Origin: Armatimonadota bacterium
GTDB taxonomy: Bacteria; Armatimonadota; Fimbriimonadia; Fimbriimonadales; GBS-DC
Assembly (NCBI GenBank): GCA_037444405.1
Contig: JBBIML010000006.1
Location: 128,001-192,000, forward strand
Direction: 5' to 3'
DNA length: 64,000 nucleotides
Shown here piece by piece: positions 5,377 through 51,491 of the stretch. The notes under the pieces are model-generated. The model worked only from the letters and a program-made list of their open reading frames with translations, had not been told where the DNA came from and made no database searches. Every line of letters begins with the position of its first letter. Position 1 is the stretch's first letter. The translations under genes and the position numbers were made by a program.

Positions 5377-8300
5377 TCACGCCGACTGCGTCACCTGTTG
5401 CCACTGGCTCTGAGGCACCTGATAGCGCACAATCTCCCGAATCTGTTCGGGCTGGAGACGGCTGGCAGGGTTTTGAATCATGTGGAGTTGGGGCTGCTCG
5501 CTCGCGTGGGTGATGATGTAGAGCCAGTATTCATCGCCCAATCGCTGCGCCATAATCCACTCGTTGGGGGTCAGCACAATATCGCCTGTTTGGGCGCGTG
5601 CTTTCACCTCGATGTAGCGAACCGTGCCGTCGGGCGCTTCAGAGCGAATATCATAGCCGAGATTTTGCGCCGAGACATCCACGGGATTGCGCCCCTGTTG
5701 ACGCTCGTACTCCATCGCCACCTGCATGCCGATTGCCTCAACTTCGGCATCGGGCGTCATTCCTGACTGGGGCTTCGGGAGAACCTGCGCGACACCCAGC
5801 AGCTCAGGTGATTGCATAGAGAGGCTCTGCTCGCGTGCAATTTCCTGTTCCAGCGCGGCGAGCCGCTGTTCCGCCTCCACTTTGCGACGCTGGGTGTTGG
5901 CAATTTCTGCCTCAGGGATGTTTTCGCGCATGGAGTATTCTATCAGTTTATCGTTTAGTTCGCCAATTCGGCGATTCAACGAAGCGACACCGTACTTGCG
6001 TTTAATCTCAGCAAGTTGGGTTCGGGTTCGGCTGAGCTCGTCACGGAGCGGCATCACGAATTCCCGCATCAAAAACGCCCCTATAGAAGCCGTATCTGGC
6101 TCTGGGATCGTTGTGGGGGGATTCTGGGCTGGTACAAGGTCCCACAGGATTGCAGGGGGCACGAGGCGCGGTGTGCCATCCTGTGCCACATACACTGTGG
6201 CAATCTGCTGGGCAGCCGTGCGATTGTTGCCATCGCGGAGTTCGACACTGTAGAAGTAGAGCCAGCCGTCCAGTTTGCCGTCGGGGTCGTAGAAGGTGGC
6301 ACCGCGTTGGCAGGCGTCGCGGCTGGCTTCGCGCAGGCGCTCCCCAATCGCCTCCAGCAGGGGGTGCCCGGGCGCGATGAATTCGGCGCCTGAGGCGCGC
6401 GCCAGCTCTTTGCGAAACGCCAGCCTCTGATAGCTGCCTTGCACCTCACCATAGGTGCGTTTGAACGCCTCTGAGCGATGGCGCAGCTCAAAAGGCACAT
6501 TCGGCACGCTCCAGAGACCAGCATGCGAGCGCCGCGCACCGATTTGCAGATGCTGGCATGCTCGCTCAAAAAACTGCTCCACATACTCAGGCACGAGTCG
6601 GTTCTCGCGGGCGCGGCGCTCCTCCCCCACAATCGCCTGCATGTCGATGTGGCGTGTGGCTAACGCCTCCTGAGTGGCTTGCTGCACCTTCTCTATCAGC
6701 GCTCGGTCAGGCAGGGCGCGAATCGACTCCACAATCTCCTGCCAGTTGCGTCGATTCGTCACGGCGTCGATAATCAGCTCGCGCAGGTCGCGCTCCAGCA
6801 AATCGCCAATCACATCGAACACGCGGTCGGTGCCCATCTGCTCGCGGATGCGTTCCAGCTTTTCCAGCAGGGTTTCCAGCACCTCGCCCTCACGCGTGTC
6901 GTGCGCCACGAGGTTATAGATATGCACCTCTCGCGTCTGCCCATAGCGATGGATGCGCCCCATGCGCTGCTCCAGGCGGTTCGGGTTCCACGGAATGTCG
7001 TAGTTGACCATCAACGAGCAGAACTGCAGGTTAATGCCCTCGCCCCCCGCCTCGGTGGAGACCATCACTTGCGTCTCGTGGCGAAACTCATGTTCCGCCT
7101 GAATGCGCGCGTCGAGGTTCATGCCGCCGTGCAGCTCGGTGACGCTGTAGCCCCAGCTGCGCAGTTTCTTCACCAGATAGTCCAGCGTATCGCGCGATTC
7201 GGTGAAAATCAGCAGTTTCTCGTTGCGCCCGAGCAGTTGCAGTTCGTCCAGCACCTCACGCAGTTCCTTGAGCTTGGTCTCGATGCCCTGTTTCTCGGCT
7301 TGTTTTGCAAGTTGTACCAGATGGCGAAGGGTATTCACCTCCTGCTGAAGTTCTGCCTGCGTGGTGGCGTTGGTGAGCTTTTCAAGGAGCTCGTCTTCAA
7401 TCTTGAAGCGCTCTGCCTCTTCCAGCTCTTCCAGCTCCTCTTCGTCGTAAGGCAGTTTGCCCTGCCCTTGTTCGGTGAAGCGGATTCCGAGCTGGAGATA
7501 CTCTTCAAGGCGCTTGAGCCGTCTTTCGAGGGACTGGCGCGCGGCGTAGATGCTGGAGGCAAAGCGTCGCTGAAGCATCAGCAAGGCGAACGCCACATTG
7601 CGGTTCTCGCCCTGAAGCGCGCGTCCATACTCGCGCTCCACATACTCGGTGAGCGCGTTATACAGCTCCTTCTCGGCGTCGCTCAGTCGGAAGGTGCGCG
7701 TGAACACATGGCGCGGCGGGAACAGCGGGCGTCCCGAAAAATCTTTCAAATCCTCCTTGAGCCGCCGCAGATAGAGGGGGTTATCGCGCTGCACTATCGA
7801 TTGCTGCAGCGACTCCACCGTTCCGAAAAAGCCCGGACGGAGCAGGTCTAAAAACAGTCGGAAGTTTTCGGGGTCGCCGCGGTGCGGGGTGGCGGTCAGG
7901 AACAGAAGCCCATGCGTGCGCATCGAGAGCAGTTCGCCCAGCCGATAGCGGGCGGTTTTGTCGGTCTTGGAGCCATACTGATACGCCGCCATCTTGTGCG
8001 CCTCGTCCACAATCACCAGATCCCAGTGCGCTTCGTGCAAAGTCGCCATCACATCGGGCTGTTTGGCGTAGTCCATCGAGGTGATAATCTGGTTCTGGTC
8101 TTGCCACACATTGTGTCCCCAGTAGGCGTCCATCACACCTCTGTCCACGACGACAAACTGCTCATCGAACTTCTCTTTCATCTCGCGTTGCCACTGGTAT
8201 TTCAGGTGTCCCGGTACCACCAGCAGCACGCGCCGCGCCACGCCACGATACTTCAGTTCTTTAAGCAACAGCCCCGCCATGATGGTTTTGCCCGCGCCGG

Positions 8301-8706
8301 GGTCATCTGCCAGCAGGAAGCGCACATCAGGCTGGCGCAGAATGTAATGATAGACCGCCTCAATCTGGTGAGGCAGGGGGTCTATTTGCGACACATTCAC
8401 CGCGAGCAGGGGGTCAAAGAGATAGGCATAGTGCAGGCGGTACGCCTCAATCCCCAGGAAAAAAGCTTCAGGGTCGCCCTGAAAGTCGCGCATCAGGGGC
8501 GCTTGAATCTGCCACTGAGCAAGGTCAGCCTCTGAGAAAACGCCGTCGTAGGCTTGTTTCGTACGCACGCCCTGCGCGTAGATTTGCCAGAAGCCGTCCC
8601 CAAACGGCTGCACCTGCACCACGCGCACCGGTTCACGAAAGTGGCTCGATTCGACGATGCTCCCGATGGGCACAGGCAATTGGCTCGCGCCCTGCATCGC
8701 GCTCAC
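5377..8706 (-). CDS. SNF2-family helicase with C-terminal DUF3883-like nuclease domain
   Basis: LLADDPGAGKT, DEAH, TATPHRG, STEAGGEGINLQ, WNPNRLEQRMGRIHRYGQ. C-terminal GYDIRS...YIEVKAR...EW (PD-(D/E)xK-like). GTG start overlaps the DUF499 stop. Confidence 0.92.
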   Translation of the reverse strand: MSAMQGASQLPVPIGSIVESSHFREPVRVVQVQPFGDGFWQIYAQGVRTKQAYDGVFSEADLAQWQIQAPLMRDFQGDPEAFFLGIEAYRLHYAYLFDPLLAVNVSQIDPLPHQIEAVYHYILRQPDVRFLLADDPGAGKTIMAGLLLKELKYRGVARRVLLVVPGHLKYQWQREMKEKFDEQFVVVDRGVMDAYWGHNVWQDQNQIITSMDYAKQPDVMATLHEAHWDLVIVDEAHKMAAYQYGSKTDKTARYRLGELLSMRTHGLLFLTATPHRGDPENFRLFLDLLRPGFFGTVESLQQSIVQRDNPLYLRRLKEDLKDFSGRPLFPPRHVFTRTFRLSDAEKELYNALTEYVEREYGRALQGENRNVAFALLMLQRRFASSIYAARQSLERRLKRLEEYLQLGIRFTEQGQGKLPYDEEELEELEEAERFKIEDELLEKLTNATTQAELQQEVNTLRHLVQLAKQAEKQGIETKLKELREVLDELQLLGRNEKLLIFTESRDTLDYLVKKLRSWGYSVTELHGGMNLDARIQAEHEFRHETQVMVSTEAGGEGINLQFCSLMVNYDIPWNPNRLEQRMGRIHRYGQTREVHIYNLVAHDTREGEVLETLLEKLERIREQMGTDRVFDVIGDLLERDLRELIIDAVTNRRNWQEIVESIRALPDRALIEKVQQATQEALATRHIDMQAIVGEERRARENRLVPEYVEQFFERACQHLQIGARRSHAGLWSVPNVPFELRHRSEAFKRTYGEVQGSYQRLAFRKELARASGAEFIAPGHPLLEAIGERLREASRDACQRGATFYDPDGKLDGWLYFYSVELRDGNNRTAAQQIATVYVAQDGTPRLVPPAILWDLVPAQNPPTTIPEPDTASIGAFLMREFVMPLRDELSRTRTQLAEIKRKYGVASLNRRIGELNDKLIEYSMRENIPEAEIANTQRRKVEAEQRLAALEQEIAREQSLSMQSPELLGVAQVLPKPQSGMTPDAEVEAIGMQVAMEYERQQGRNPVDVSAQNLGYDIRSEAPDGTVRYIEVKARAQTGDIVLTPNEWIMAQRLGDEYWLYIITHASEQPQLHMIQNPASRLQPEQIREIVRYQVPQSQWQQVTQSA

Positions 8707-11350
8707 TCCTTCTCCTCGGTTTCAACTTCCGCCTGGATCTGATTCAGCGTCTCCCGTATACTGATGTCCACAAGGCTTTTGGGAATCTCCCCCTGCACTT
8801 CCAGCTCGATGGTGAAGCGGAAATTCAGCCCTTGTCGCATGAGGGGGGTCAGGACGCCCTGTGCCAGCTCATAGGTCTTCGCGCTGGACACCGAGGCGCG
8901 CAGTTTATAGCGCCGATAGCTGGGCTGCTCCGTGGACGCAGGCGGCGGTAGCGGCTCGACCTGATGACCATCGCTGACAGCCACTGGCTGGGCAGGCTCG
9001 CGCTCCGGCGGCACCTCTTCGGGCGTCGGCTCAGCCGAAGAGACAGCAGGCGGCTCCTTCAGCAGCGTGGCGTCGTAATTCAGCGCGTCCATCGGAATCG
9101 GCTGTTGGTAATACACGCGCTCTCCCACCCGTACAGCAAACGCGCCCTCCTGAACACCGCGTCGAATCGCCTGAAACACCACCTGCTCATTCTCCACTAT
9201 CGGCAGATGGGTGTAGCGGAAGAAGGCATCCACGATGTCCTTAACCGAAACCTCGTTCGTGTCAGCGGACACAGCCTTATCCAGTATCATTCGGGGCGAG
9301 ATTTGCTTCAGGAGCAGGTCATCATGCTCAAGGAATTGTCGCACGCGCTGGCTGAGCGTCTCCCGCGTGCCCGCGGTGGGCGTGCCCAGCGAGCGCCAGT
9401 CCAGCCGACCATCCCGTAGTAAAGCCACATGGCGATAGGCGTTCAGCGCCTGAAACTGCTCGCTTCCCAGAAAATCCTGAATGCGGCGATTGACCGTGTT
9501 TTTATCTTCGTCGCTCAAGGTTTCCCAGAGTGCCCGCTCTCTCTTGATTCGCTCGTACGCGAGGCGTTCGCGCACGCGGTTCTGCAGATTGGCTAAGTGC
9601 TGCTCGTCGGCAACCAGGAACACGAGCGTGTTGCGGAAGGTGCGTGGCTTTTCGCCTGCCGCGCCAAAGAGCGTATCCAGCAATCGCTCCGTTTCGGGGT
9701 GAGCGCGTGTGTAATCGGGCGCCAGCACGCCCAGCTTCAGCTCGCGTGTGTCGGGAATGTCATCGGGGCGCTCAGAAAAGAGCAACACCTTCGGGAACGC
9801 GCTTCCTGCATACTTACGAATCGCCTCCCGAACCGCCTCATCCACCTCCGACTGAGTAACCTGTTCCTGCTTGTCCAGAACAATCTTGTTCAGATTCGGC
9901 TGGAGTCGGAACTGGTACAGCCCGTCTTCGTAGTGGAGGTACCAGAGCTTGCGGGTGAGCTGGTGTATCGCCTCGCCGAGTATCGCTGTTGGCAGGGTGG
10001 GGTTCAGGGCGCACAGGCGCAGTTCGGCTTCGGAGACGCCGCGCTTCTCGCCCGCGCTGAACCCGCCAAAGAAGACGGCGGTCGCCAGCCCGCGCGCCAC
10101 CTGATGCGCCTCATATTCCGCGCCCAGCTGCTTCTCCACCATCCGCGCCTGCGCCGAATCGCCGATGATGTCCCGCTGAATCACCGAGGCGAACTCGTTG
10201 CCGATGTGGCGCAATAACTCCTGCTGAATCGCGCCGTTCGCCAGATTGATGTGAACGGGCAAGATCAGCGGCTCCGCCACACGACGCCGATAGAGGTCGC
10301 TCAACACCTCGCCCAGCAGTTTCAGCACGCCGCGCGTGCGTTGAAAATTTTGAAACGACGCCCACTTCTCGTAAAGCAGGTCAATCACCTCAGGGTGGAA
10401 GGGATAGGCAAGGCGCATGCGTTCCCGATAGGCGTCGGTGCGCGCCTTTTCGGGGAGCTGCTCCGCATGCCGTTGATACAGCTCATAAAACGCATCCACC
10501 GTGCGGCGTACTTCTGTCGGGTCTGCAATCTCCCTGAACAGGCGTGGCGAATCACATGGAAAAACTCATCCTGCTCTACAGGCGTGTAGATGGCTTGCAC
10601 GCGCCCGAAAATCATCTCCAGCTGGCGTAGCACGCGCTCGCCCTCTTCCCCGTAGGGCGCGCTGCTGGGAAGCGTCGCCACCAGCACGCTGTGTGGGAGC
10701 GATTTCACCACTTCGGTGAGCTGCTGGCAGAAGACCATCACCTGCTCCTGGAAGTCGCGGGCGCTCACGGCGTAGGTAGCCAGCTCGTCCATCAGGATGA
10801 GCGTGGAGGCGTCTCCCAGCATCGCGCGCAGGTTCTCGGCGCCGGGCGCCCGACGCTTGCGGTCATGCTCTTCCAGCAGGTCGTATCGCCCCAGCTGCTC
10901 CGCAAACAGCCCCCAGGGGGTTTTGCCCCGAATCGTATCGTACTCTGTGCCAACGAAGGTGAGGATGCGCACTTCAGGCAGTTTGTCCACCTGAGCGCGT
11001 TCGAGCGTATGCCGAACCAGCGGCGCCTCGCGGTGCGTGTCGCCGTGCCGAAACAGGTGGTAGAGGCTAATCAGCGCGTGCGTCTTGCCCCCGCCAAAGG
11101 GCGTTTGCAGTTGAATCACCGCATCGCCATGCCCCGTGGTCAGGCGTCGCACCACCTGCGCGAGCAGATTCAACAGCCCTTCCGTCGGATAGGTCTGCTG
11201 GAAAAACTTTTCGGGGATGCGATATTCCAGCGCGCCGCGCTCCTGCAACACATCGCGCAGGTCCGCCGCGAACATCGAATCATCCAGCTCACCCTGCAAA
11301 ATGTCTTCCCTCGGAATCGCGACCTCATACCATGCTTTCATGGGGTTCAC
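8703..11350 (-). pseudogene. DUF499 AAA+ ATPase, split by a 1-nt frameshift near 10545
   Basis: LQTPFGGGKTHAL (Walker A), LILMDEL (Walker B), YPFHPE, FQRTRGVL. The junction ATT CGC CA CGC CTG TTC lacks one base of the expected IRxRLF. Confidence 0.88.
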
Positions 11351-11384
11351 CCTCAGGGAAAGTTATACCACATTTTACATCCTC

Positions 11385-14252
11385 TCACACCTCCCAACGA
11401 CGGCTGAAGCCCAGCAACCCCTGCATCAAACGACGCTCCGAATCCCCCTCCGGCAACGAATCCGCCACCGCCTGCGCCAACATCCACAACACCCGATCCC
11501 GATGCAAACCCTCACGCTCCAACCACGCCACCAAACGCCCCGTCTGACCCGACTCCCACATCCACGCCGCCAACTGCAACGCCTCTACCTTGCTCCCCTT
11601 CGCCCGCGCATACAACGACTCCCACAACGCCTCCGACGCCTCGTTCGGCTTCTCCTCCATCTCCCAACCCATCGCCAACTGCTCAGGAGCCGCCCGACGA
11701 CGACCCCGCACCGACACGCCCACCAAACCCCGCCCCCACGCACGCTCCAACGGCGACACCACACGCACCCGCTTGCTCTCGCCCCCCCTTGCCCTGCGCA
11801 GGCACAATCACACGCCCCTCACCCCACACCGCCGTCAACTCCAACCCCACGCTCACCGCCAACTTGCGCGCCTCGTCAAACGGCACCTCCGCGTGCCCAT
11901 ACGACCACCGATACAACAGATAAAACTGCGACAGCGCGTCCAACTCCACCACCACCTCCCGCTCCCGCAAAATCCGCTCCAGCGCATAACGGCTCACCTG
12001 CTCCCGCACCAGCGTGAGCAACACCGACGCCCCCACCGCCTTCCCCGACGCCCGCTCCACACGCGCGTACTGCCCGAACACCGCCAGCGCCGGACCAATC
12101 GCGCTGATGAACAGATCCGCCCCCCGAACCCCCGCGTCCCAGAACTGGTGCAGGCGCCGCTCTATCGCGTCCACAATCTGTGGCTTGAGGTCGCCCCAGA
12201 AGCCGACGCGCGCCCCCACCCGCTTGCGACACACCAGATAGATAGACGACGCCAGCGCGGCGTTGCCCTGCGCCAGCAGGCGCGCCTGCATTTCAGTGTG
12301 TATCGGCAGGGCGGCGGTGGGGTAGAGACCTGCCCGCAACAGCGCGTTCAGCACCGTTTCCCACGCTTCGGTGGTCTTGTGGGCGAACACGATAATCGCG
12401 ATGCCGTCGGGCTTCAGCACGCGGTGCATCTCGCGGAACGCCTGCTCCAGCATCGCTTCAAACTGCTGTTTGGCGGCTTCCCGACTGCCCACGCGGTAGG
12501 CGTCGGCGACCATTTCCTGCGATTTGGGGGTGAGGGGTGTGGCGAACAGGTCGGGGTGCAGGTCGCCGATCGTGCGTTTGAGCCACACATAGAAGAAGTC
12601 AGAGAGGACGGCATAGTTCACATTATCGTAGTAGGGCGGGTCGGTGAAGATGGCGTCGAAGTGGTTATCGGGATAGGGCAACTCGGTCGCCGTGCCGTGA
12701 AGGGCTTTCGGGGGCGTTTCAACGGATGGAATAGCGCAGAGGTGGTCAAGTACTCTAACGGTGTCTTGAAATACTTCGTGCCAGCTCCGCGATGCCTCTC
12801 CTAACGGGTTCGATTCCACATAGTCCCACAGCATCGGGATTGCTTGGCGGGAAAAAGTATCCGCTATCTTTTCACCTACTGGTTGCCAGCGGCACACCGA
12901 AGAGCTTGCTGACGCCAGCCTGTCGAAGTTTAGTGCCAAATAAGTGCCACTGCTTTGGCGAACTCGGCGTCCGCGCCCTGCTCCACCATCAACCGATACG
13001 CCCGACGCACCCCCTCCGCAAACACCAGCAACGCCAAACGCTGACGCGCGTTGAACAAATCTCCAAACTCGTACATTTTGTAATGCAAAACTGCCATCTG
13101 GTTTCCGCCAGTGCGAACGAGGCGTTCATTCGGCACAGGCTCTATTCCCCACTCCGCTCGCAGGCGCGCCTCCCACTCCGCCAGCGCCGACCGCGCCCGC
13201 TCAAACACCGCCATATCCTCCGCCGTCGCCAAACGATACCTCTTGCCCGCACGATCCGAATAGTGCAACACCACCGCCACCAACCGCTCCCCCGCACGAC
13301 CCGCCTGAAACAACGCCCGAACCCGCTTGTCGTCCGTCGTCTCCCCACACACAGGACACCGCGCGTGCGCCCGCACCACCGTGCCCTGCTCCGGGTCAAA
13401 ATCCAATCCCTCCCCCTCCACAATCTCAAAATCCACCCGCTTCGCCACCTTATCGGGCACAATGCGCAACGCAACCTGCTTCTTCTCTTTCTTCACCAGC
13501 CAGGTCTGGCGCATCAGCGGGATTTCCGCCCCACAAATCGGGTTCTGGCACGGTATCGTGCGCGCCCAGAGGTAGCCCACAGGGATAGCACCGTCGGGGT
13601 CGGGCGGATAAAACGGCTCCAGATGTTCCCGCGCCCATTCCAGCACCCACTCACCATATGCCGCCACCGCCTCCACCAGCGGCGACTGGCGGCTCTCCGC
13701 CTCCAACAGGCGCAGCCCCTCCCCATTGCCCGACGGCAACACCACACGAAACGCCCCCGACGCCCCAAACCGCTGCGGATACTCCAGCACACAGCGGTTC
13801 AGCAACACCGCCAGCGGGTTATAATCCAGCGCGTGCGTCTCGCAGCCCAGCCGCAACGCCTCCAGCGGAATGCTCCCCCCGCCTGCAAACGGGTCCAGCA
13901 CCCGCGGCGCCCGCCCCCCATACGCCTCGCGAATCAGCGCCCGCGCTTTTTGCAAGTTCGGGTTCTTCGCGTTCTGTACCGCCTCAAAGGGGGTGAGCGC
14001 CTCAATCAGCTGGAGCCACTCGTGGCGTCGGCTGGGGCTGTCGGGCAACAGCGCCGCCAGTGCCGTCGCCCGCGAGGCTGCCAGCGGGCGGCGCGCCCAG
14101 TAGATATGGAGCGTGCTGATGTGCCCGTGTCGGAGGTTCTTCTCGCGGGTCGACTCGGCGGAGACGCGCTCCAGCGGAAAGACGGTTTCAATCAGGCGCG
14201 TCTGGCGTTCCTCTGGCGATAGGTTCTGAGCGTACATCATTCTGATGTTCAT
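11385..14252 (-). pseudogene. DUF1156 adenine-specific DNA methyltransferase, split by two frameshifts (~12946 and G7 at 11782-11788)
   Basis: LHIYWARRPLAASRA, DPFAGGGSIPLEALRLG, two CxxC-type pairs, FTDPPYYDNVNYAVLSDFFYVWLKR. Three ORFs join into one protein if two single-base indels are corrected. Confidence 0.88.
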
Positions 14253-14329
14253 CTCGTACCTCCTCACTTCTATTATACCCTATCTGTATTTTCGGCAGGG
14301 GGGAGGGCAGATTCCTGCAGAGGTTTTTG

Positions 14330-14417: not shown

Positions 14418-15998
14418 TCAGAACTGCACCACGCGGGCGCTTTCGACGCCCTCTAACTGTCGAATCTGGGTCAGCACATCGGGCGGGATGGGGTCGTCCA
14501 CCTGCAGCATCATGACGGCGCGCCCGCCGATGCACTCCCGCCCCACATGCATGCCCGCGATGTTAATCTGATGGCTGCCTAACAGCGTGCCCACACGCCC
14601 GATGATGCCCGGACGGTCGTGATGCTCTGTCACCAGCAGGATCCCTTCGGGCTTGATGTCGACGAACAGGTCATCCAGGTGGGTGATGCGCAGGTCGTGG
14701 CGTCCGAACACGGTGCCGCTGAGCCGCTGTTCGCCCTGCGCGGTGGTGGCGATGGTGGTGAGCGTGTCGGGATAGAGTTCCGATTCGGCGCGGTGGCTCC
14801 ATTCCAGTTTCAGCCCGCGCTGCTGGGCGATCAGGGGCGCGTTCACGAGGTTCACCGGCGTATCGGTCGTGTGGCTGAACAGTCCGACCAGCGCGGCGCG
14901 GGCAATCATATCGAGCGGGATGCCCTCCCAGTCGCCCGCGAAGCGCACCTGCAGCTGCTCGACGGGCGCGTTCAGCAGCTGGGCGTGCAGGCGTCCCATG
15001 CGCTCGGCGAGCTGCAGGTAGGGCTGAACGCGCTCGCGCTGTTCAGCGGGGATCGGCGGTAGGTTCACCGGGCTGCGCGGCACGCCCCCTGTCAGCACCG
15101 CGACAATCTGCTCTGCCACATCGAGGGCGACCTTGACCTGCGCCTCTTCGGTGGACGCGCCCAGATGGGGCGTCAGCACATTCTGGGGCTGGTGCAGCAC
15201 GCGCAGGTCGCCCGGCGGCGGCTCCTGCGGGAACACATCGAGCGCCGCGCCCGCGACATGCCCTGAATCGATCAGCTCCGCCAGCGCGTCCAGATCGATC
15301 AGCTCGCCCCGTGCGCAGTTGATGATTCGCACGCCCGGTTTAGCCCTCGCCAGCCGTTCGCGATTGAGCAGGTGGTGGGTTTCGGGGGTGAGCGGCGCGT
15401 GCAGGCTGATAAAATCGCTGCGCTGGAGCAGTTCATCCAGGCTGACTGGCTCTGCGCCGAGTTGCTGGATGTGGGCGGGCGGCACGAAGGGGTCGTACGC
15501 CAGCACCTGCATGCCGAACGCGCGGGCGCGACGGGCGACCTCCCTGCCAATCTTGCCGATGCCGATGATGCCGAGCGTCTTCTTGTAGAGTTCGGCGCCG
15601 ATGAAGGCGCTGCGTTTCCATTCGCCTGCGCGCACGGAGCGGTCGGCTTGCGGCACTTTGCGGGCGAGCGCGAGCAGCAGCGCGAAGGTCAGCTCCGCCG
15701 CCGCAATCGTGTTGCCTTCGGGCGAGTTCACCACCACGATGCCGCGTCGGGTGGCGGCGTCCACATCGATGTTGTCCACGCCGACGCCCGCCCTGCCAAT
15801 CACCTTGAGGCGCGTGCCCGCCTCGATCAGCGTGGCGTCCACCTGCGTCTGCGAGCGCACCATCAGCGCGTCGTAATCGCCGATGATTGTGAGCAGCGGC
15901 TCACGCGCGATACCGGGGCGATACCCCACCTCGCCCGCCTGTCGCAGAATCGCCAGCCCCTCCTCGGCTATCGCGTCGCTCACCAGTATGCGCGCCAT
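14418..15998 (-). CDS. serA: D-3-phosphoglycerate dehydrogenase (long form with ACT domain)
   Basis: RAGVGVDNID, GIGKIG, INCARGEL, TPHLGAST, C-terminal DRPGIIGRVG. Confidence 0.97.
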   Translation of the reverse strand: MARILVSDAIAEEGLAILRQAGEVGYRPGIAREPLLTIIGDYDALMVRSQTQVDATLIEAGTRLKVIGRAGVGVDNIDVDAATRRGIVVVNSPEGNTIAAAELTFALLLALARKVPQADRSVRAGEWKRSAFIGAELYKKTLGIIGIGKIGREVARRARAFGMQVLAYDPFVPPAHIQQLGAEPVSLDELLQRSDFISLHAPLTPETHHLLNRERLARAKPGVRIINCARGELIDLDALAELIDSGHVAGAALDVFPQEPPPGDLRVLHQPQNVLTPHLGASTEEAQVKVALDVAEQIVAVLTGGVPRSPVNLPPIPAEQRERVQPYLQLAERMGRLHAQLLNAPVEQLQVRFAGDWEGIPLDMIARAALVGLFSHTTDTPVNLVNAPLIAQQRGLKLEWSHRAESELYPDTLTTIATTAQGEQRLSGTVFGRHDLRITHLDDLFVDIKPEGILLVTEHHDRPGIIGRVGTLLGSHQINIAGMHVGRECIGGRAVMMLQVDDPIPPDVLTQIRQLEGVESARVVQF

Positions 15999-15999
15999 C

Positions 16000-16047
16000 T
16001 CACTCATTATTATTATCCATGAACGCATACAGCTTAGCTTCGTCCAT
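16000..16047 (-). other. 15-codon micro-ORF (MDEAKLYAFMDNNNE) abutting the serA start; probable stump of a third cassette gene
   Basis: Strong GAGGAGG RBS. Its TGA is 1 nt before the serA ATG. AT-rich like the adjacent cassette. Confidence 0.4.
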
Positions 16048-16166
16048 CGTTGTTCCTCCTCTTGAGTGTTGTGGGAGCTCACGCGGTTGCATGTATACCA
16101 TAAAAATTACACCTCACCAAAAGCCTTTTTGCCAAGATCGATCGCACATTTCAATTCGGGAACTTT

Positions 16167-17108
16167 TCATTTGAATCGCTGGTAGGCTGACCATCGCTGA
16201 TGCTCCATGCTGCCTTGACCAGCCATACACCAGCTCCGTACAGGGCACCTTGTGCAGTCTGGACTCGCTTCAAAACACCATTTCATAGCAACATGGAACG
16301 CACCTTCATCCACAAACATCGGCACCACTTGAGGTACTGATTGCACTCTCTTCTCTATGGAGCCTCGCATGTTCTTGGCTACAATCACATAGGGACGCCC
16401 CGACTCGTAGACTACATCCTCTATCACGCCCGTCCGACAAAAGACTTTACCGACATGTCCATCTACAACCATGAGTGTTTCTCGCATATCGATATCCAAC
16501 TCCCGCCATTTTTCCACAAAAAGCCAGACCAGCCAGCTGGTCAGCATGCGAGCAGCTTTCGGATCATTGCCAACCCACCCGCCCTCTAAAATAGAGTGTT
16601 CACGCAAAAATGCCCAAAGAGAGTTTACACCGTCCTGAAGCCGACTTCTGGACAGTTCATACAGACCAGTACCGTCTGGCAGATTACGAACGAGAAAAAT
16701 AAAAGTGGCGAATCTATATAGAAACAGCGACAGTGGTTTGATGCCACCCAATGCACCAACACGATAAAGCTCTCTGCCTTTTCGACCACCGATTTCTCGG
16801 AAGATATCCAGCACATCTCCGAATCGCTGCTCCACCGTATCAGGCTGGTATAGCAGTGTATCTCCAAATCTGGCGAACAGCTCGCGTACGAACTCTCGTA
16901 TTTTGCCGGTGTCGCCTTGCTGATTGAGTAATGAACGCAAAAGCAGGTAACGAATGATGCTTTCTCTGTTTTCGATGGGTAGCTCCTCAGGCAGCGCCAT
17001 GCTCTCGCGCCACTGCCCCTTCCATGTACGCCGACCAATCTGTTCCAGATGCGAAATTAACTCTTTTCGCTGATCAGGCTCGAGAGCTTCTTGTTTTACC
17101 TTTGGCAT
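16167..17108 (-). CDS. divergent endonuclease III-like (HhH-GPD) DNA glycosylase with [4Fe-4S] motif
   Basis: C-X6-C-X2-C-X5-C (CFEASPDCTRCPVRSWC), VDGHVGKVFCRTG (compare Nth VDTH..RV..R.G), GNDPKAARM (HhH lysine position), LLLRSLLNQQ. Start MPKVKQ. Confidence 0.75.
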   Translation of the reverse strand: MPKVKQEALEPDQRKELISHLEQIGRRTWKGQWRESMALPEELPIENRESIIRYLLLRSLLNQQGDTGKIREFVRELFARFGDTLLYQPDTVEQRFGDVLDIFREIGGRKGRELYRVGALGGIKPLSLFLYRFATFIFLVRNLPDGTGLYELSRSRLQDGVNSLWAFLREHSILEGGWVGNDPKAARMLTSWLVWLFVEKWRELDIDMRETLMVVDGHVGKVFCRTGVIEDVVYESGRPYVIVAKNMRGSIEKRVQSVPQVVPMFVDEGAFHVAMKWCFEASPDCTRCPVRSWCMAGQGSMEHQRWSAYQRFK

Positions 17109-18072
17109 TACGAGCTGATGACCTCCTCTTTTTGACCTGGTCGGAGAGCCAGGTACGCAGGCGTTGAGCATCATCGCGCACGGTATACTCAAATCTCACA
17201 TCGTCCAGTAAAGAAGGGCTATCGACACCAACTTTTGCCCGAATGATGGGTAGCAGTTCGCTGTCGATTTCGTAGCCGATGCATGGGCGTCCGAGGCGAT
17301 ACGCTACTCGCATCGTTGTGCCACTGCCCAGAAACGGGTCCAGCACCGTCTCGCCCTTATAGGAGAACAACAGCATCAGACGCCGTACCAGCTCTTCTGG
17401 AAATGCCGCGATGCCTTCTTCCAGCCGTCCCTGCAACGGCAATACATTTGTTATCTGCCATACATTCAGGTACCATTTTTGTTTTTGATACTCAACTAGA
17501 TCGATTCGGGACTCTTCACGCCTGCCGGCGCAGATGCGTTGATAATCGAAGCGACCTTTCTGGAAAATCAGCACGCTCTCCTGTACATTATCCGGGTAGT
17601 AATAGAGCGGGTATGGATGCTGAAGAATCACCCCACTGCGACGGCTGATGCGGATATAACCCTCTGGTTTAAGCCAGACGATGCGATCCCGATAGCGGAA
17701 GCCCGCCTCCAGGAAGATTCGGGTCATGTCCGCAACCACAGGGTAGCGCTCGCCGTCGACAAGCACATCGTCGCAAACGATGCAGGCAACGCGCCCTTCC
17801 TCCAGCACACGCCAGATTTCCTGTGCCACGGCACGCATCGATTCGAGATAAGCCTCGTAGCTCTGGAATAGGTTGGGATAGTCAAATGGGGCATTGAAGT
17901 AGGGTGGGCTGGTGAGAACCATCTGCACCGACCGTTCGGGCAACTCTGTCATATTCCGCGCGTCGCCGAAAATCACGCGCAGAATGCAGCGCTCTGGCGC
18001 ACCTGCCTCTGGGGTATCAGCGGCTCGGTTCGCCAGACCATTCTGAATTGGTCGCTTCGCTGGCATGGTCAT
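17074..18072 (-). CDS. beta-class N4-cytosine/N6-adenine DNA methyltransferase
   Basis: Catalytic TSPPY precedes the SAM-binding DPFLGSGTT. Also AAFPEELVRRL and GYEID. Start overlaps the serC stop (ATGA). Confidence 0.93.
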   Translation of the reverse strand: MTMPAKRPIQNGLANRAADTPEAGAPERCILRVIFGDARNMTELPERSVQMVLTSPPYFNAPFDYPNLFQSYEAYLESMRAVAQEIWRVLEEGRVACIVCDDVLVDGERYPVVADMTRIFLEAGFRYRDRIVWLKPEGYIRISRRSGVILQHPYPLYYYPDNVQESVLIFQKGRFDYQRICAGRREESRIDLVEYQKQKWYLNVWQITNVLPLQGRLEEGIAAFPEELVRRLMLLFSYKGETVLDPFLGSGTTMRVAYRLGRPCIGYEIDSELLPIIRAKVGVDSPSLLDDVRFEYTVRDDAQRLRTWLSDQVKKRRSSARNAKGKTRSSRA

Positions 18073-19157
18073 CCCCTGCGTTGCATGAAGTCGAGCATGA
18101 AGTCGCGCAGCGCCTGCACGCCTTCGAGGGGCATGGCGTTATAGATCGAGGCGCGGCAGCCGCCGACGGAGCGGTGTCCCTTCAGCTCGTACAGCCCGTT
18201 CGCCTGCGCCTCCTGCAAAAACGCCTTCTCCAGCTCCTCGCTCGGCAGTCGCCAGGTCACATTCATTACGGAGCGGCATTCGGGGTGCGCATGCCCGCGA
18301 TAGAAGCCCCCACTCTGGTCGATCACCTCATACAGCAGGCTCGCCTTCTGGCGATTGAGCTGCTGCATGCGTTCCAGCCCGCCGATCTCGTTCAGCAGCC
18401 AGCGCGTGACGAGCATCACGATATAGATGGCGAACACGGGTGGCGTGTTATACACCGATTGATGCTCCGCTTGCAGGCGATAGTCGAGCATGGCGGGCAG
18501 GTTCGGTGGCACGCGCTCCAGCAGGTCCTCCCGAATAATCACGATGGTGACGCCAGCGGGTCCTGCGTTCTTCTGGGCGCCAGCGTAGATGAGCGCGTAG
18601 CGTTCGATGGGCAGTGGGCGCGACAGGAAATCGGACGAGGCGTCGCACACCAGCGGCAGGTCGCCCACAGGTGGCTCCTGCTGAAACTCCACGCCCTGAA
18701 TCGTCTCGTTGGAGGTGAAATGCACATAGGCGGCGTTGGGGTCGATGTCCAGTTCGTCGGGGCGTGGGGTTCGGGTGAAGTTCTCGCTTTTGCCTGACCA
18801 CGCGATGCGCGCCCGCCCGACCTTGAGCGCCTCTTGAAATGCCTTCTCACCCCATGAACCCGTGAGGATATAATCGGCAGAACGGTCGCCCAGCAGGTTC
18901 ATCGGCACCATCGCGAACTGCAGGCTCGCGCCGCCCTGCAAAAACAGCACGCGATAGTGAGCGGGGATATTCAGCAGCCGTCGCAGGTTCGCCTCCGTCT
19001 CCTGCAAAATCGCATCGAACCATCGGGAGCGGTGGCTGATCTCCAGCACCGACATGCCGACGCCTGGCAGCGCCAGCAAATCGCGCTGCGCTTCCTGCAG
19101 CACGGGCAGCGGCAACACCGCTGGACCCGCCGAAAAGTTCCACACTCGCTCTGGCAT
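18069..19157 (-). CDS. serC: phosphoserine aminotransferase
   Basis: NFSAGPAVLP, QGGASLQF, YAGAQKNAGPAG, YNTPP, GHRSVGGCRASIYNA. Confidence 0.98.
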   Translation of the reverse strand: MPERVWNFSAGPAVLPLPVLQEAQRDLLALPGVGMSVLEISHRSRWFDAILQETEANLRRLLNIPAHYRVLFLQGGASLQFAMVPMNLLGDRSADYILTGSWGEKAFQEALKVGRARIAWSGKSENFTRTPRPDELDIDPNAAYVHFTSNETIQGVEFQQEPPVGDLPLVCDASSDFLSRPLPIERYALIYAGAQKNAGPAGVTIVIIREDLLERVPPNLPAMLDYRLQAEHQSVYNTPPVFAIYIVMLVTRWLLNEIGGLERMQQLNRQKASLLYEVIDQSGGFYRGHAHPECRSVMNVTWRLPSEELEKAFLQEAQANGLYELKGHRSVGGCRASIYNAMPLEGVQALRDFMLDFMQRRG

Positions 19158-24261: not shown

Positions 24262-24648
24262 CTACTGACCATAGCATCCGCAGCTGCCGCAGCCGCAGCC
24301 GGGCGCGCCCTCGACACCCTCTGCCTGAAACGACGAGCCACAGCCGCAGGTGGCTATCGCGTTCGGGTTATCGATCTTGAACCCACCGCCCAGCATGTCT
24401 TCCACATAGTCGATGGAAGAGCCGTCCATATACTGGATGCTCAGGTTGTCCACATAGATTCGCACGCCGTGCGACTCGAAGATGAGGTCGTCGGGTTCGG
24501 GCTCGGCGTCGTCGATCGCCATCTGGTACTGCAGTCCGCTGCAGCCGCCGCCCGCCACCCAAACGCGCAGGCTGGCGTTCGGAATGCCCTGCTCCTCCAG
24601 CAACGCTCTGATCTCCTGAGCCGCACGCTCGGTAAGTGTGATTGCCAT
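24262..24648 (-). CDS. A-type Fe-S cluster carrier (IscA/ErpA/HesB family)
   Basis: GGCSGLQY and NPNAIATCGCGSSF, plus an extra Cys-rich tail. Confidence 0.93.
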   Translation of the reverse strand: MAITLTERAAQEIRALLEEQGIPNASLRVWVAGGGCSGLQYQMAIDDAEPEPDDLIFESHGVRIYVDNLSIQYMDGSSIDYVEDMLGGGFKIDNPNAIATCGCGSSFQAEGVEGAPGCGCGSCGCYGQ

Positions 24649-24812
24649 CGGTCTCTACCTCCACAGGGATTATACCCGACTGACCTGCCCTTCCGCGCCC
24701 AAAAACAAAACTCGCATTTTTCGCATGTGAAAGGGGCGGCTGGGTGTGGAAAAACGCCTCTGCAGACGCCTGACAGGGCGTCCGATACTCTTGCAACAGG
24801 AGGAGTGGAACG

Positions 24813-25241
24813 ATGCGACGAGTGAAGGGCTTTACGCTGATAGAGATGCTCGCGGTGCTGGTGATTCTGGTGACACTGGCGGCGATTGTGATCCCGCGCT
24901 TTATTAATGCGGGCACGCGCAGCCGCGAAGCCGCTTTACGACAGACGCTGGCGGAAGTGCGCAACGCCATCTCCATCTTCCGCAACGACACGGGCTACTA
25001 CCCCCGGCAGCTCAGCGACCTGACGGCGACCACCCCACCGACTCAGGGCTATGACCGCTGGGGTCAGCTCCAGCCGATTGACCCTGCCGATTATCACGGT
25101 CCCTATCTGGATAAGCTGCCCATCTGCCCCATTTCCAAGCAGCCGCTGCAGTACTATCGGAACGCGCAGACGGGCGCATGGGATGTGCGCAGCCCGTCCA
25201 CGGCACGCGCACAGGACGGCACGCGCTACAACACCTGGTAG
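24813..25241 (+). CDS. type II secretion major pseudopilin-like protein (GspG-like)
   Basis: Class III signal KGFTLIEML...IVIP, followed by FRNDTGYYP and YHGPYL. Confidence 0.85.
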   Translation: MRRVKGFTLIEMLAVLVILVTLAAIVIPRFINAGTRSREAALRQTLAEVRNAISIFRNDTGYYPRQLSDLTATTPPTQGYDRWGQLQPIDPADYHGPYLDKLPICPISKQPLQYYRNAQTGAWDVRSPSTARAQDGTRYNTW

Positions 25242-25249
25242 GTGGTGTT

Positions 25250-25660
25250 ATGCAGGGTCGGGACTATCGCCAGCAGCGGGGTTTGAGCCTTGTGGAGGTG
25301 CTCACCGCGGTGGTTATCATCGCGGTGGGGCTGCTGGCGATTGCCGGCACGCTGGGCTGGGTCAGCCGCTCCAGCGCGAAAATGCGCTATCAGAAGATCG
25401 CACTCACGCTGGCGGAAAGCAAACTCGCTGAGCTGGAGGCTGACCCCCAGCTGCCTGCAAGACCAACGACCCAGTTATTTAATGTGGGGCGCCCCGTGAG
25501 CAATTTGCCGCGCGGAGCCGTGATGCAGCTCTATTCGGAGCCGTTTCCGACGCCGACCGAGAAACGCCTGCGTCGGGTGCGAATCGAGGTGCGCTGGGGC
25601 GCACCCAACGACCCGCTCAGCGGGCGAATCGTGCGCGAGCGGCTCATCTGCTTGAGGTGA
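25250..25660 (+). CDS. minor (pseudo)pilin, PilV/GspI-like
   Basis: RGLSLVEVL prepilin motif. Confidence 0.8.
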   Translation: MQGRDYRQQRGLSLVEVLTAVVIIAVGLLAIAGTLGWVSRSSAKMRYQKIALTLAESKLAELEADPQLPARPTTQLFNVGRPVSNLPRGAVMQLYSEPFPTPTEKRLRRVRIEVRWGAPNDPLSGRIVRERLICLR

Positions 25661-48686: not shown

Positions 48687-49145
48687 ATGGCACGAAAAGC
48701 ATTGAGGAGACGACTGGTTGCTTCGGTGGTGTTCGCCACCTTATTAGCGTCACTCCCTGTATCTGTAATCCCGTCAGATGTGTGCGGGATTGCAAACACT
48801 GATATTAACCCGGCTGCGGTTATGCCGTGTCCTAATCCACCACCAAGTCAGACTTTGCCAGGCTATAAATGCGCTCCTTGGTTCTGGGCTAGCTGCCAGG
48901 ATATTCCCTGCCGCTGTACAACTTATACTTATTGCTATGGGCAAGGACGATTTCGTATCTGTGTTTCCGTCACAATATGCGAGGAGTTTGTCTCTACCCG
49001 AGCACAGTTCCCGCGCTGCTATCCGTCACCTGGTTCCACATGTACATACAACCCTCGCCCATGCGGCACGTATTATAAGTACTTTGGACGCTGTGGTGGC
49101 ATACGATTTTGGAGGTTCGATGGCTGGATTCTCTCCTGCGCTTGA
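48687..49145 (+). CDS. secreted cysteine-rich peptide (14 Cys)
   Basis: GGAGGTG RBS, basic-hydrophobic signal peptide, 14 Cys, rich in Tyr/Pro/Arg. Confidence 0.75.
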   Translation: MARKALRRRLVASVVFATLLASLPVSVIPSDVCGIANTDINPAAVMPCPNPPPSQTLPGYKCAPWFWASCQDIPCRCTTYTYCYGQGRFRICVSVTICEEFVSTRAQFPRCYPSPGSTCTYNPRPCGTYYKYFGRCGGIRFWRFDGWILSCA

Positions 49146-49150
49146 TAACA

Positions 49151-50467
49151 ATGTACAGAAGGCTTCTGATTTGGGTGGTAGCAGGTGGTGTCGTGCTGGT
49201 AGCGGCTGGAATTGGGTTTTACCTGCTGACAGCCTATCTGATAACAAAAAAGCTGATGCAGAGCCTCCAGCCGCTGCCAGCAAACCAGATATTTCGCTCT
49301 GCTATCCCTGCCTCGTCGTCTCCAAATAAGCCCTTGCCCAAAGCGGAGACAATTTTTGAGGCTGCCGATAGTTCTTTCACCTCTATGGAGCGTATAAATA
49401 TCCAGCTAAACATAAATCAATATTTATCACCATTCTTCTTAACCCTTTTGTCTACACCACCCACTGCCTCGACACAACCAAGTTCTTCAACGACATATAT
49501 TTCTATCGATATTAATGATATTAATTCAAATATAATAAATGAGTGGCATATCGATTTCGGTCAACGATCAGTTCTATTTAAGAAGATTAAAGATGACACG
49601 ACCCAACAAACACCCAAGAGGCTTCGCCCCATTGTAAAGTCAGAACCCATTAAACAAGCTGCCTATGATGGCACGCGGTGGGTTATCATACTGGACGACT
49701 ATCACCATCCGCTCAAACTACCTGAATATGACTGGCGGTATCAAGTGATCTTGCTTGGTAGCCTCGAAGAGGGTATAAAGGTGATTAATAGGATTGAGAG
49801 TAGCGACCTGCTCCTGCCTTTGTTCGGACTTCATCGAGCCTATCTGTTTGCTGAAAATAATATAGACAGTTTAATAAAAGTTAATAAAGCTCTTAATGTT
49901 GAAGGGATACCGAATGGGTGGAGAGTAGAGACAGTTGGAGTTGATCGGATAAATGGATATGAATGTTACAGAATCCGAGCTTCTAACCCCAATCTGCAAT
50001 CCACAGTCTGGCTCTGGTTCTGTCCTAACTTGCAGAATCGGTGTGTGCGCGCGGAAGCTCTGGTATCTGGCAACATTAAGGTCAATGGACAGCCCGCATC
50101 ATTTGCAATCGCTGCTGAGATAACAGAGTGGGCTACTGAAGACTTCAAAATCCCCATGCCCAGAAAATTAAAGATTACGAGATATTTTCCATCTTCTAAA
50201 TCGGAGTATATCCTGTTTGATCGTGTTGAAGCGACTGTTCGCTATCTGAAGCCGATAGCCGAGCATGAGTATCATCTTTCGATTCCGACTGATTCGGCGC
50301 ATGTTTCAGACAACATCAATAACCGTGTTTATACCGTCGGTAAGATGGTTCCCATCGCCCCCCGCAAATCGCTGGTAGTGCCCGCACTGATTGCAGGCTC
50401 AGTCATAATGGCGCTGATAGCCATTTTCGGCTTACGCGCTTACAGGAGGTGGGCTTACCGTGGATAA
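49151..50467 (+). CDS. hypothetical protein with N- and C-terminal TM helices and a beta-rich periplasmic domain
   Basis: Long AT-rich ORF with hydrophobic ends. The segment G.DRINGYECYRI..VWLWFCP resembles LolA/MucB-like folds (weak). Confidence 0.7.
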   Translation: MYRRLLIWVVAGGVVLVAAGIGFYLLTAYLITKKLMQSLQPLPANQIFRSAIPASSSPNKPLPKAETIFEAADSSFTSMERINIQLNINQYLSPFFLTLLSTPPTASTQPSSSTTYISIDINDINSNIINEWHIDFGQRSVLFKKIKDDTTQQTPKRLRPIVKSEPIKQAAYDGTRWVIILDDYHHPLKLPEYDWRYQVILLGSLEEGIKVINRIESSDLLLPLFGLHRAYLFAENNIDSLIKVNKALNVEGIPNGWRVETVGVDRINGYECYRIRASNPNLQSTVWLWFCPNLQNRCVRAEALVSGNIKVNGQPASFAIAAEITEWATEDFKIPMPRKLKITRYFPSSKSEYILFDRVEATVRYLKPIAEHEYHLSIPTDSAHVSDNINNRVYTVGKMVPIAPRKSLVVPALIAGSVIMALIAIFGLRAYRRWAYRG

Positions 50468-51491
50468 ACGGAAGGTGTTGATGAGCTTGCCTGCGGTCCT
50501 CCTATTGTTGCTGATTGGAGTGACCACCTATTGGTGGATAACGCGATCATCCACAGCGTCACGATCATCAGCAGATGAGCTACCTGTGTTCGCGACATCC
50601 AGAGTATCGATTGGTAATCGGTTTGAAGAGGATCATACCTATACAGATGTTAAATTCGTAAACAAAACAAATCTCACATGGCGAGTGAAAAGGGTACTTT
50701 ATTCCTGTTGTGGAAACACGGAGCAATACTATCGCTGGCAGCCTGAAGTTGTTCCTCCTGGCGCCACTTTGCAAGTGCATGCCCGACTGGACTTTTCGGG
50801 GCATCTGGCAGGTGTTGCAGAGAGAGCTTTTGTGCAGACCTTCTGGGTGGAGGTGGAAACGGATGGCAACCCCCGAAGAGGCTTTCTTGTCGCGGAAGTT
50901 GAGGGGGTTCAGAAGAACTGTCTTCCTGACGCTCCTCTGTATCTGCATCTGAAATCATCCAAGCCAGGCACATTATCTTACAGCCTCCATCCAGAAATCA
51001 ATCTGCAAGACATCAAGGTATCTACAACCTTGCCATGTCTGCGGGCTTTTGTCGACACCCAGCAGAGACAATTGAGGATCAAATACTATCCTGTTGATAA
51101 AGACTATTCTGGAAAATTAATCATAAAAGATAAAGAAGGAAATATAGTTCGTACAATTGTTGTTGCAATTATGCCTGCGGAACGAATCCTCATAACTCCC
51201 CGCTTATTAGGATTTGGATTGGTTGATAAAAACAAAATTTATAGAAAATATTTAAGATTAAATCTTGGAAAAATTTTGCAATATCATAACGAGATAAGGC
51301 TCCTTAATCCTGTATCGCCTGCGGGCAGGTTCCGAATCGCTGACATCGAGCGCGAGAACCAATCGGTGCTTTTGACAATTGAGTTTGTGCCGCATACTGA
51401 TGGCGTCCATCGAGGGAAGCTCAGAATTCAAGCAGGCAAAACGGCTCTCGATGTACCGTGGAGCTGCGAAACCGTGCCTGCCTCGCGCTAA
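50460..51491 (+). CDS. membrane-anchored DUF1573-like multi-Ig protein
   Basis: TM helix, FVNKT..VKRVLYSCCG..VVPPG, second P..LGFG.V repeat. Overlaps the upstream stop. Confidence 0.65.
   Translation: MDKRKVLMSLPAVLLLLLIGVTTYWWITRSSTASRSSADELPVFATSRVSIGNRFEEDHTYTDVKFVNKTNLTWRVKRVLYSCCGNTEQYYRWQPEVVPPGATLQVHARLDFSGHLAGVAERAFVQTFWVEVETDGNPRRGFLVAEVEGVQKNCLPDAPLYLHLKSSKPGTLSYSLHPEINLQDIKVSTTLPCLRAFVDTQQRQLRIKYYPVDKDYSGKLIIKDKEGNIVRTIVVAIMPAERILITPRLLGFGLVDKNKIYRKYLRLNLGKILQYHNEIRLLNPVSPAGRFRIADIERENQSVLLTIEFVPHTDGVHRGKLRIQAGKTALDVPWSCETVPASR

Follow-up and report, generated by a model that had tools for sequence, protein, structure and literature searches.

A 64,000-nucleotide stretch of the genome of an Armatimonadota bacterium (GenBank assembly GCA_037444405.1, contig JBBIML010000006.1, positions 128,001 to 192,000 of the forward strand), referred to here as the window, carries two overlapping minus-strand genes that sit between the host genes serC and serA (Table 1). 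The upstream gene, M, encodes a beta-class DNA amino-methyltransferase (MTase); the downstream gene, G, encodes a protein with a [4Fe-4S] cluster motif and the predicted fold of endonuclease III (EndoIII) and the other HhH-GPD glycosylases. It is proposed here that the pair forms a mobile restriction-modification module in which G, a candidate DNA glycosylase and apurinic/apyrimidinic (AP) lyase, stands in the place of a restriction nuclease.

The GC content is 0.48-0.54 over the cassette, compared to 0.60-0.69 in the flanks. At third codon positions (GC3) it is 0.50 in the longer open reading frame (ORF) of G (16167-17192) and 0.60 in M, compared to 0.75-0.83 in the neighbouring genes. The composition of the cassette is foreign to its host. 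The longest ORF of G extends to a TTG start at 17192. In 20 of the 21 aligned relatives the protein begins at an MPK or MAK corresponding to the ATG at 17108, the exception (P0013) beginning 8 residues further in, and GAGGAGG is found 13 nucleotides upstream of this ATG, at 17122-17128, within the end of M. The 35-nucleotide overlap is therefore real, and the description of a low-GC, two-gene cassette with such an overlap, given in the original prediction from the bare sequence, holds. The overlap and the GAGGAGG suggest translational coupling of the two genes in the order M, then G. The first 30 or so codons of the M ORF (17980-18072) are GC-rich and have no counterpart among the orthologues, and the ATG of this ORF overlaps the stop codon of serC (ATGA, 18069-18072), which places the true start of M, or the left edge of the insertion, probably near 17985. 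On the other side, 84 nucleotides separate the stop codon of G from serA, and the cassette appears to lie within a transcription unit that includes serC and serA. A scan for promoters and terminators gave no signal above shuffled controls, and a search for repeats or target duplications flanking the cassette gave short, chance-level matches only.

Table 1. Genes and other features of the cassette and its surroundings. Positions are those of the window, except in the last row, where the locus of the family survey is named.
Feature	Position	Strand	Remarks
M, beta-class DNA amino-methyltransferase ORF, 332 amino acids	17074-18072	-	PF01555; SPPY, then DPFLGSGTT
G, HhH-GPD-fold [4Fe-4S] protein, 313 amino acids, candidate restriction glycosylase/AP lyase	16167-17108	-	Sequence motifs; predicted fold
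M/G overlap, 35 nucleotides	17074-17108	-	End of M, start of G
serC (phosphoserine aminotransferase family)	18069-19157	-	PF00266, 2.8e-42; host gene upstream of M
serA (D-3-phosphoglycerate dehydrogenase)	14418-16082	-	PF02826, PF00389, PF19304 and ACT domains; host gene downstream
HmaA	5377-8706	-	1.1e-213
HmaC, split in two ORFs	8703-10499 and 10385-11350	-	
HmaB (DUF1156 methylase), split in two ORFs	11683-12939 and 12930-14267	-	
Extra, different Type II methylase genes beside the module	L022 298-2876; L003 7169-7903; L025 3713-4777; L016 2553-3224		

In M the motif IV sequence TSPPYFN precedes motif I, DPFLGSGTT, which is the beta-class order. The protein matches PF01555 (N6_N4_Mtase) at 5.2e-41 and the PADLOC model MTase_II at 2e-72, and its closest solved structure is TTHA0409 (2zie, 1.3e-25). 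M thus has the catalytic and S-adenosylmethionine-binding motifs (SPPY and FLGSGTT) of the DNA methyltransferase of a Type II restriction-modification system, and its assignment to the beta class in the original prediction was correct. According to the available part of a published account, SPPY is the motif IV of an N4-cytosine MTase, and the adenine MTase CcrM has DPPY (PMC10406627). Because its motif IV is SPPY, as it is in 19 of 19 translated orthologues, M is probably specific for the N4 position of cytosine. The names of its relatives are all generic and indicate no specificity, and the accessible portions of the literature on TTHA0409 state no target base.

G contains the cluster motif C278-X6-C285-X2-C288-X5-C294, the motif VVDGHV with D216, and the motif GNDPKAARM with K184. 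The Lys and the Asp are 32 residues apart, compared to 18 in Escherichia coli Nth (K120-D138; NC_000913.3). All four features had been pointed out beforehand and are present in the sequence as described. An AlphaFold (AF2) model of G computed from a 21-sequence alignment had a predicted local distance difference test score (pLDDT) of 91.6 and a predicted template-modelling score (pTM) of 0.91. When the model was compared with the Protein Data Bank (PDB) by Foldseek, all of the matches listed (ranks 1-50) were MutY/MUTYH, EndoIII/NTHL1, the thermostable thymine glycosylase 1kea, or AGOG, with probabilities of 0.93-1.00. Their template-modelling (TM) scores were 0.31-0.69 by target length (0.69 for 2abk) and 0.25-0.49 by query length, and their E-values were modest; a core is therefore shared, and some 100 residues of G are extra. 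In a phmmer search of the PDB sequences, residues 206-303 of G were aligned to human MUTYH (E 0.0058), with VVDGHV on VVDGNV and the Cys loops in register. Alignment with E. coli Nth by hhalign put D216 on D138 and again brought the cluster loops together. The nearest clusters to G in a language-model atlas were HhH-GPD, AGOG and an "iron-sulfur cluster loop" family.

Conservation within the family bears on the same residues. Among the 21 aligned relatives, which are 42-62% identical to G, residues K124, K184, D216, K221, D267, C285, C288 and C294 are invariant and C278 is nearly so, and K184 remains invariant after the addition of six relatives of 24-30% identity. In the model, K184 follows GWVGNDP and opens the helix 182-200, directly before the helix that bears the Asp; from the motif and this predicted secondary structure, K184 may be the equivalent of Nth K120. 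The catalytic Asp of the HhH-GPD superfamily is present as D216, given its alignment with MUTYH and with Nth D138 and its invariance in 21 of 21 sequences. The Cys set aligns with the loops of Nth and MUTYH and is thus predicted to hold a [4Fe-4S] cluster. At E<=1 there was no match of G to PF00730 (HhH-GPD), and the relatives P0127 and P0166 scored 20.3 and 20.2 bits against a cut-off of 26.2 for this model. The sole NCBIfam match of G, mutY, reached 22.2 bits against a cut-off of 286.5, so no curated model makes it an orthologue of Nth or MutY; PADLOC (PADLOC-DB v2.0.0, 2023) gave no match of any kind for G. G is a distant but genuine member of the HhH-GPD fold, orthologous to neither Nth nor MutY. 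The earlier reading of G as an EndoIII-fold protein distinct from housekeeping Nth and MutY is thereby supported on both counts, the structural matches including EndoIII, MutY and Mig. Judged by its residues, G appears to keep the set expected of a bifunctional glycosylase/AP lyase. A MutY-type mechanism was considered and set aside: four residues before the conserved QQ, where the catalytic Glu would fall by MutY numbering, members of the family have Ser, Ala or Val.

A more distant subfamily (P0138, P0141, P0143, P0144, P0155, P0156, P0126, P0127 and P0131), 24-30% identical, keeps K184 and the Cys loop and is without the GALGGIKP and GWVGNDP motifs. Several of its members have Cys-rich inserts within the cluster loop.

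At E<=1e-3 the family of G comprises 180 clusters of 90% identity, and in a set of 1.84 billion proteins clustered at 50% identity it accounts for just 56 representatives. Its members come from Fervidibacter and other Armatimonadota, Kryptobacter, Archaeoglobaceae, Thermoplasmatota, Jordarchaeales and others; it is a compact, thermophile-centred family found in both Bacteria and Archaea. In one scan of species-representative genomes 34 G loci were found, among them the contig of the window itself, a metagenome-assembled genome (MAG), and these were sorted by tblastn and ORF maps. An orthologous M, 53-78% identical to that of the window, accompanies G in 30 of the 34 loci, which is 30 of the 32 with upstream DNA, across many phyla. 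The linkage to an N4/N6 methylase that the original prediction made a test of its proposal is therefore borne out. In 22 loci an undisrupted G has an undisrupted M directly upstream on the same strand (L001-L013, L015-L017, L020, L021, L023, L024, L026, L027); 19 of these pairs are complete, and a contig end cuts one gene in L020, L024 and L027. G is disrupted beside an intact M in four loci, by a TGA stop (L022), a frameshift (L028, L031) or two frameshifts and a stop (L032), and both genes are disrupted in two (L018, L034). In one locus (L014) an intact G accompanies an M that is frameshifted twice; both junctions, within 410-1310, fall in runs rich in A/T, and a coverage of about 4x is given in the name of the contig, so that an assembly error is possible. 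One locus has M upstream on the opposite strand (L033), two hold a C-terminal remnant of G and no orthologous M (L025, L030), and two lie on contigs without upstream DNA (L019, L029). The order M, then G, with overlap is conserved: in the loci read from the map, the end of M runs 23-47 nucleotides past the start of G, L024 having a 21-nucleotide gap instead. Apart from three near-identical Fervidibacter neighbourhoods, the loci have no third gene in common. Recurring neighbours of the AMP-binding, GH127 and IF-2B families were considered as a third gene and set aside as housekeeping coincidences.

The two genes travel together. Pairwise identities of M and of G are correlated (r = 0.92; 171 pairs, not independent of one another, from 19 loci), and the G of an archaeal Methanobacteriota MAG (L012) is 69% identical to that of a Clostridia MAG (L010). 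The GC content of the module is below that of its flanks in 18 of 21 loci, and the flanks vary from locus to locus. The M-G pair behaves as one horizontally moving unit that inserts at unrelated places, and G thus stays beside the methylase and is transferred with it, as the partner in a Type II restriction-modification system is. Decay is biased towards G, which is broken beside an intact M in four loci, the reverse being seen in one. A search of plasmid records with M gave only matches of 32-35% identity with uninformative names.

A complex prediction for two copies of G, made with the alignment, scored 0.78, compared to 0.02 for the best of three controls. Among proteins of solved structure, 20 of 30 that are pairs of one chain reach this score, as does 1 of 23 that are single chains. 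At least 96% of the contacts are common to the runs, and the partner has a pLDDT of at least 90. The predicted interface is symmetric and is made of residues 89-100, 120-142 and 172-180; in it lies GALGGIKPLSLFLYR (118-132), an invariant motif of the family that is absent from the distant subfamily. The model supports binding, and G is predicted to be a homodimer. To our knowledge, HhH-GPD glycosylases of the classical type act as monomers. Reading a palindromic site calls for a two-fold dimer.

Taken together, these results point to a mobile, Type II-like restriction-modification module in which restriction would be the work of a homodimeric HhH-GPD [4Fe-4S] glycosylase/AP lyase rather than of a phosphodiesterase, a reading to which we give a probability of about 0.55. 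A role in restriction is backed by the mobility of the unit and its transfer between domains, by the greater decay of G than of M, and by the predicted homodimer. The conserved, overlapping order of the two genes and the presence of an Hma defence system one gene from the cassette in the window also count in its favour. In the proposed mechanism M would methylate an exocyclic amino group, probably at cytosine N4, in a short and probably palindromic site of the host. G, made after M from the overlapping frame, would bind the same site as a symmetric dimer and take a flipped base into its pocket. At a site that lacks the methyl group, Asp216 would help to break the N-glycosidic bond, after which Lys184 would form a Schiff base and the strand would be broken by beta-elimination. 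Incoming unmethylated DNA would be destroyed either by events on both strands or by cleavage of the abasic sites by heat or AP endonuclease; at the growth temperatures of the hosts such sites would also break unaided. A stronger form of this proposal would make the family of G a second, evolutionarily independent superfamily of restriction glycosylases. Its enzyme, a homodimer of EndoIII fold with a [4Fe-4S] cluster, would recognise a short palindrome, cut out a normal base that lacks methylation, possibly a cytosine of the kind protected by N4-methylation, and nick by beta-elimination, all within a two-gene selfish module spread among thermophilic Bacteria and Archaea; the odds of this are about even.

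Several observations weigh against a restriction glycosylase. The similarity of G to known glycosylases is weak: the best Foldseek E-value was 3.8e-3, all of those among the matches listed being above 1e-3, the hhalign probability was 39%, and the only Pfam match was the 17-residue EndIII_4Fe-2S motif at E 0.07. No alignment placed K184 on Nth K120, and in two distant relatives, P0126 and P0143, D216 is replaced by Asn. The removal of a normal, undamaged base by an HhH-GPD enzyme is known only in special cases, such as that of MutY acting on A opposite 8-oxoG. The intact G beside an M with two frameshifts in L014 is unexpected if G were toxic, and no homologue of G was found among the plasmid or phage records searched. 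The neighbours of the module are mostly housekeeping genes. Among 196 neighbouring ORFs (at least 100 amino acids, those mostly covered by longer ORFs being dropped), only nine, in eight loci, match PADLOC models at E<=1e-15, so that the consistent setting in defence islands that the original prediction made a test was not found. Of its proposal of a restriction glycosylase, the fold, the distance from Nth and MutY and the methylase linkage stand, the defence-island setting does not hold consistently, and the central idea, that G would be a toxic arm blocked by methylation, is inferred; the interpretation is thus supported in part. Nor could a recognition site be assigned from palindrome avoidance, since CTAG, which is low in 33 of the 34 sequences, is also low in a 20-kb E. 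coli control (2 vs 16) and all of the compared sequences carry the module.

It has to be asked whether G might instead serve the methylase in repair, as Vsr serves Dcm and Mig.MthI serves M.MthTI, so that an orphan methylase would be accompanied by non-toxic, site-directed base-excision repair of a deaminated base, or of a wrongly alkylated one such as the by-product 3-methylcytosine. The vsr gene overlaps dcm, and strict linkage, the order of methylase then partner, and overlapping frames are the pattern of that pair as well; linkage and overlap therefore do not separate restriction from repair, and they count against the former to that extent. A T:G glycosylase, 1kea, is fourth among the fold matches of G. 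An accessory repair gene would likewise decay before its methylase, as in the four loci against one, and both the intact G of L014 and the mostly housekeeping neighbourhoods suit a repair gene. One point that speaks for restriction in preference to repair is the chemistry of M, which is an amino-MTase with SPPY in all 19 orthologues, and not a C5 methylase of the kind served by Vsr and Mig. Deamination of N4-methylcytosine gives uracil and that of N6-methyladenine gives hypoxanthine, both of which are handled by general repair, and a dedicated partner is therefore not expected. Moreover, the predicted symmetric homodimer, formed on the most conserved motif, suits a palindromic site and not a single lesion. 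No other candidate restriction gene accompanies the mobile methylase: none of the PADLOC restriction endonuclease models matches any of the 196 neighbouring ORFs, and with no candidate nuclease among them G occupies the position of the restriction gene, nothing else being left to partner this mobile, Type II-like methylase. The presumed lyase position is a Lys in G; in Mig it is a Tyr, as given in the available text of one report (PMC9945173). A repair role is thus judged unlikely, though a serious contender.

Much lower standing is given to three other explanations. If G were an inactive EndoIII scaffold, serving as a DNA-binding sensor or as a regulator or specificity factor of M, it would have a parallel in the END nucleases, which, in the part of the source available, reuse the fold as a defence sensor (PMC12191111), and the Asn at D216 in the two distant relatives would be explained. 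Neither K184 nor D216 varies among the 21 members of the core family, however, no effector is fused to G, and no third conserved gene could act as one; fused or longer forms of G were sought and none was found, which is weak evidence. Such a sensor is considered very unlikely. Slightly less credible still is a Type IV-like or demethylase-like glycosylase dependent on methylation or another modification, after the fashion of Brig1/Brig3 or DME/ROS1. Defence glycosylases that act against modified phage bases exist, according to the available portions of two accounts (PMC13160076, PMC12191111), and the family profile weakly touches ROS1 in the cluster region, although at E 0.15-0.32 these matches lie beyond any significance threshold. 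An enzyme of this kind would need no dedicated methylase, yet the same one is present at 30 of the 32 assessable loci, and removal of the mark made by its own partner would be a futile and damaging cycle. The alternative in the original prediction that G targets phage-modified bases likewise fits poorly with an obligatory methylase partner. As for a housekeeping Nth or MutY paralogue that lies beside a methylase by chance, it would share the fold and cluster motif of G, but its probability is negligible in view of the mutY score, the lack of an Nth or Pfam HhH-GPD match, the small size of the family, its linkage to M across many phyla, and a composition foreign to the host.

The known system most like the proposed restriction glycosylase is R.PabI/M.PabI, in which a methylase is paired with an enzyme that excises a base at the unmethylated site and has AP-lyase activity, as is proposed for G. 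The PabI family occurs in thermophiles, is mobile, and often has a decayed restriction gene, according to the parts available of three sources (PMC10273834, PMC4615327, PMC7229829); the cassette is likewise found in thermophiles and is mobile, with G often decayed. The active form of PabI is a dimer, as is predicted for G. PabI, however, has the HALFPIPE fold and not that of HhH-GPD, and since this fold was not found in G, which had no PabI or CcoLI structure among its Foldseek matches listed (ranks 1-50), G is not a member of the PabI family. G also has a [4Fe-4S] loop and the probable Lys/Asp pair of the HhH-GPD enzymes. The base protected in the PabI system is the adenine of GTAC, whereas that protected by M is probably cytosine, at N4. 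The activity of PabI has been shown, and G is known here from its sequence and a model. All other known families of restriction enzymes are phosphodiesterases according to the part available of a 2023 review (PMC10273834), and in the available part of a 2025 review glycosylase action is mentioned only with PabI references and modification-dependent enzymes (PMC12707154). No EndoIII-fold restriction enzyme and no methylase-glycosylase module of this type was described in the open-access literature searched, REBASE and subscription journals lying outside that search.

G shares with Nth and MutY the fold, the aligned catalytic Asp and the C-X6-C-X2-C-X5-C loop, and may share with bifunctional Nth a Lys after the hairpin. 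It differs from both by its extra length of about 100 residues, the Lys-Asp spacing of 32 rather than the 18 of Nth, the family-specific motif GALGGIKPLSLFLYR in the predicted dimer interface, scores below every curated family threshold, and its mobility, methylase linkage and foreign composition. Mig.MthI/M.MthTI and Vsr/Dcm resemble the cassette in that a repair-type enzyme is genetically tied to a methylase, and Mig shares the fold (1kea). Their partners are C5-cytosine methylases and they repair T:G mismatches, whereas M is an amino-MTase (PF01555, SPPY). In the END nucleases, too, the EndoIII fold has been recruited to anti-phage defence; as described in the portion of the source at hand, they consist of a phospholipase D-type (PLD) nuclease fused to an inactivated EndoIII/Ogg domain, target hypermodified DNA and have no methylase partner (PMC12191111). 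G, in contrast, keeps its Lys and Asp, has no fused nuclease and is partnered by M. Brig1 and Brig3, according to the available text (PMC13160076), share with the proposed role of G the use of base excision as an immune effector. They recognise phage-modified cytosines and need no methylase for self-protection. The concept of a restriction glycosylase is thus already known, and would be realised here on a different and very common repair scaffold.

If the proposal is true, base excision is a recurrent route to a restriction enzyme and not a peculiarity of PabI, and in this case one built on the most common scaffold of the repair glycosylases. It would follow that an HhH-GPD enzyme can become sequence-specific and methyl-sensitive, which bears on the origin of demethylases of the DME/ROS1 type. 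G could be the first glycosylase in nature to excise a normal, undamaged base, be it cytosine or another, at a defined sequence, and it might provide a thermostable and probably metal-ion-independent reagent for making site-specific abasic sites. Pipelines for the annotation of restriction enzymes miss partners of this type, as the absence of a PADLOC match for G illustrates, and some "orphan" methylases of thermophiles may therefore not be orphans.

A defence system does lie close to the cassette in the window: a helicase-methylase-ATPase (Hma) system at 5377-14267 on the minus strand is separated from it by a single gene, serA. Its HmaC and HmaB genes are each split and may be frameshifted pseudogenes or the products of assembly errors. 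Elsewhere, four of the nine neighbouring ORFs with PADLOC matches are other methylases. Extra, different Type II methylase genes lie beside the module in four loci (Table 1), and in L025 one of these follows the remnant of G.

Several 4-bp palindromes are extremely depleted in the 64-kb window relative to a Markov expectation: GGCC occurs 6 times vs 424 expected, ACGT 5 vs 140, CTAG 4 vs 66, GATC 163 vs 422, and CCGG 117 vs 325. One CTAG lies within the M gene, at 17496. This avoidance suggests a history of several restriction systems in the lineage; none of the palindromes could be tied to the cassette. Other parts of the window also have a low GC3. Two ORFs at 24368-24991 (minus strand) and 25051-25431 (plus strand), with GC3 of 0.53-0.54, have no Pfam or PADLOC match, nor do three consecutive plus-strand ORFs of 152, 452 and 343 amino acids at 48687-51491, which form a second island with GC3 of 0.45-0.46. 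Of the four CTAG and five ACGT sites in the window, one each falls within this island.

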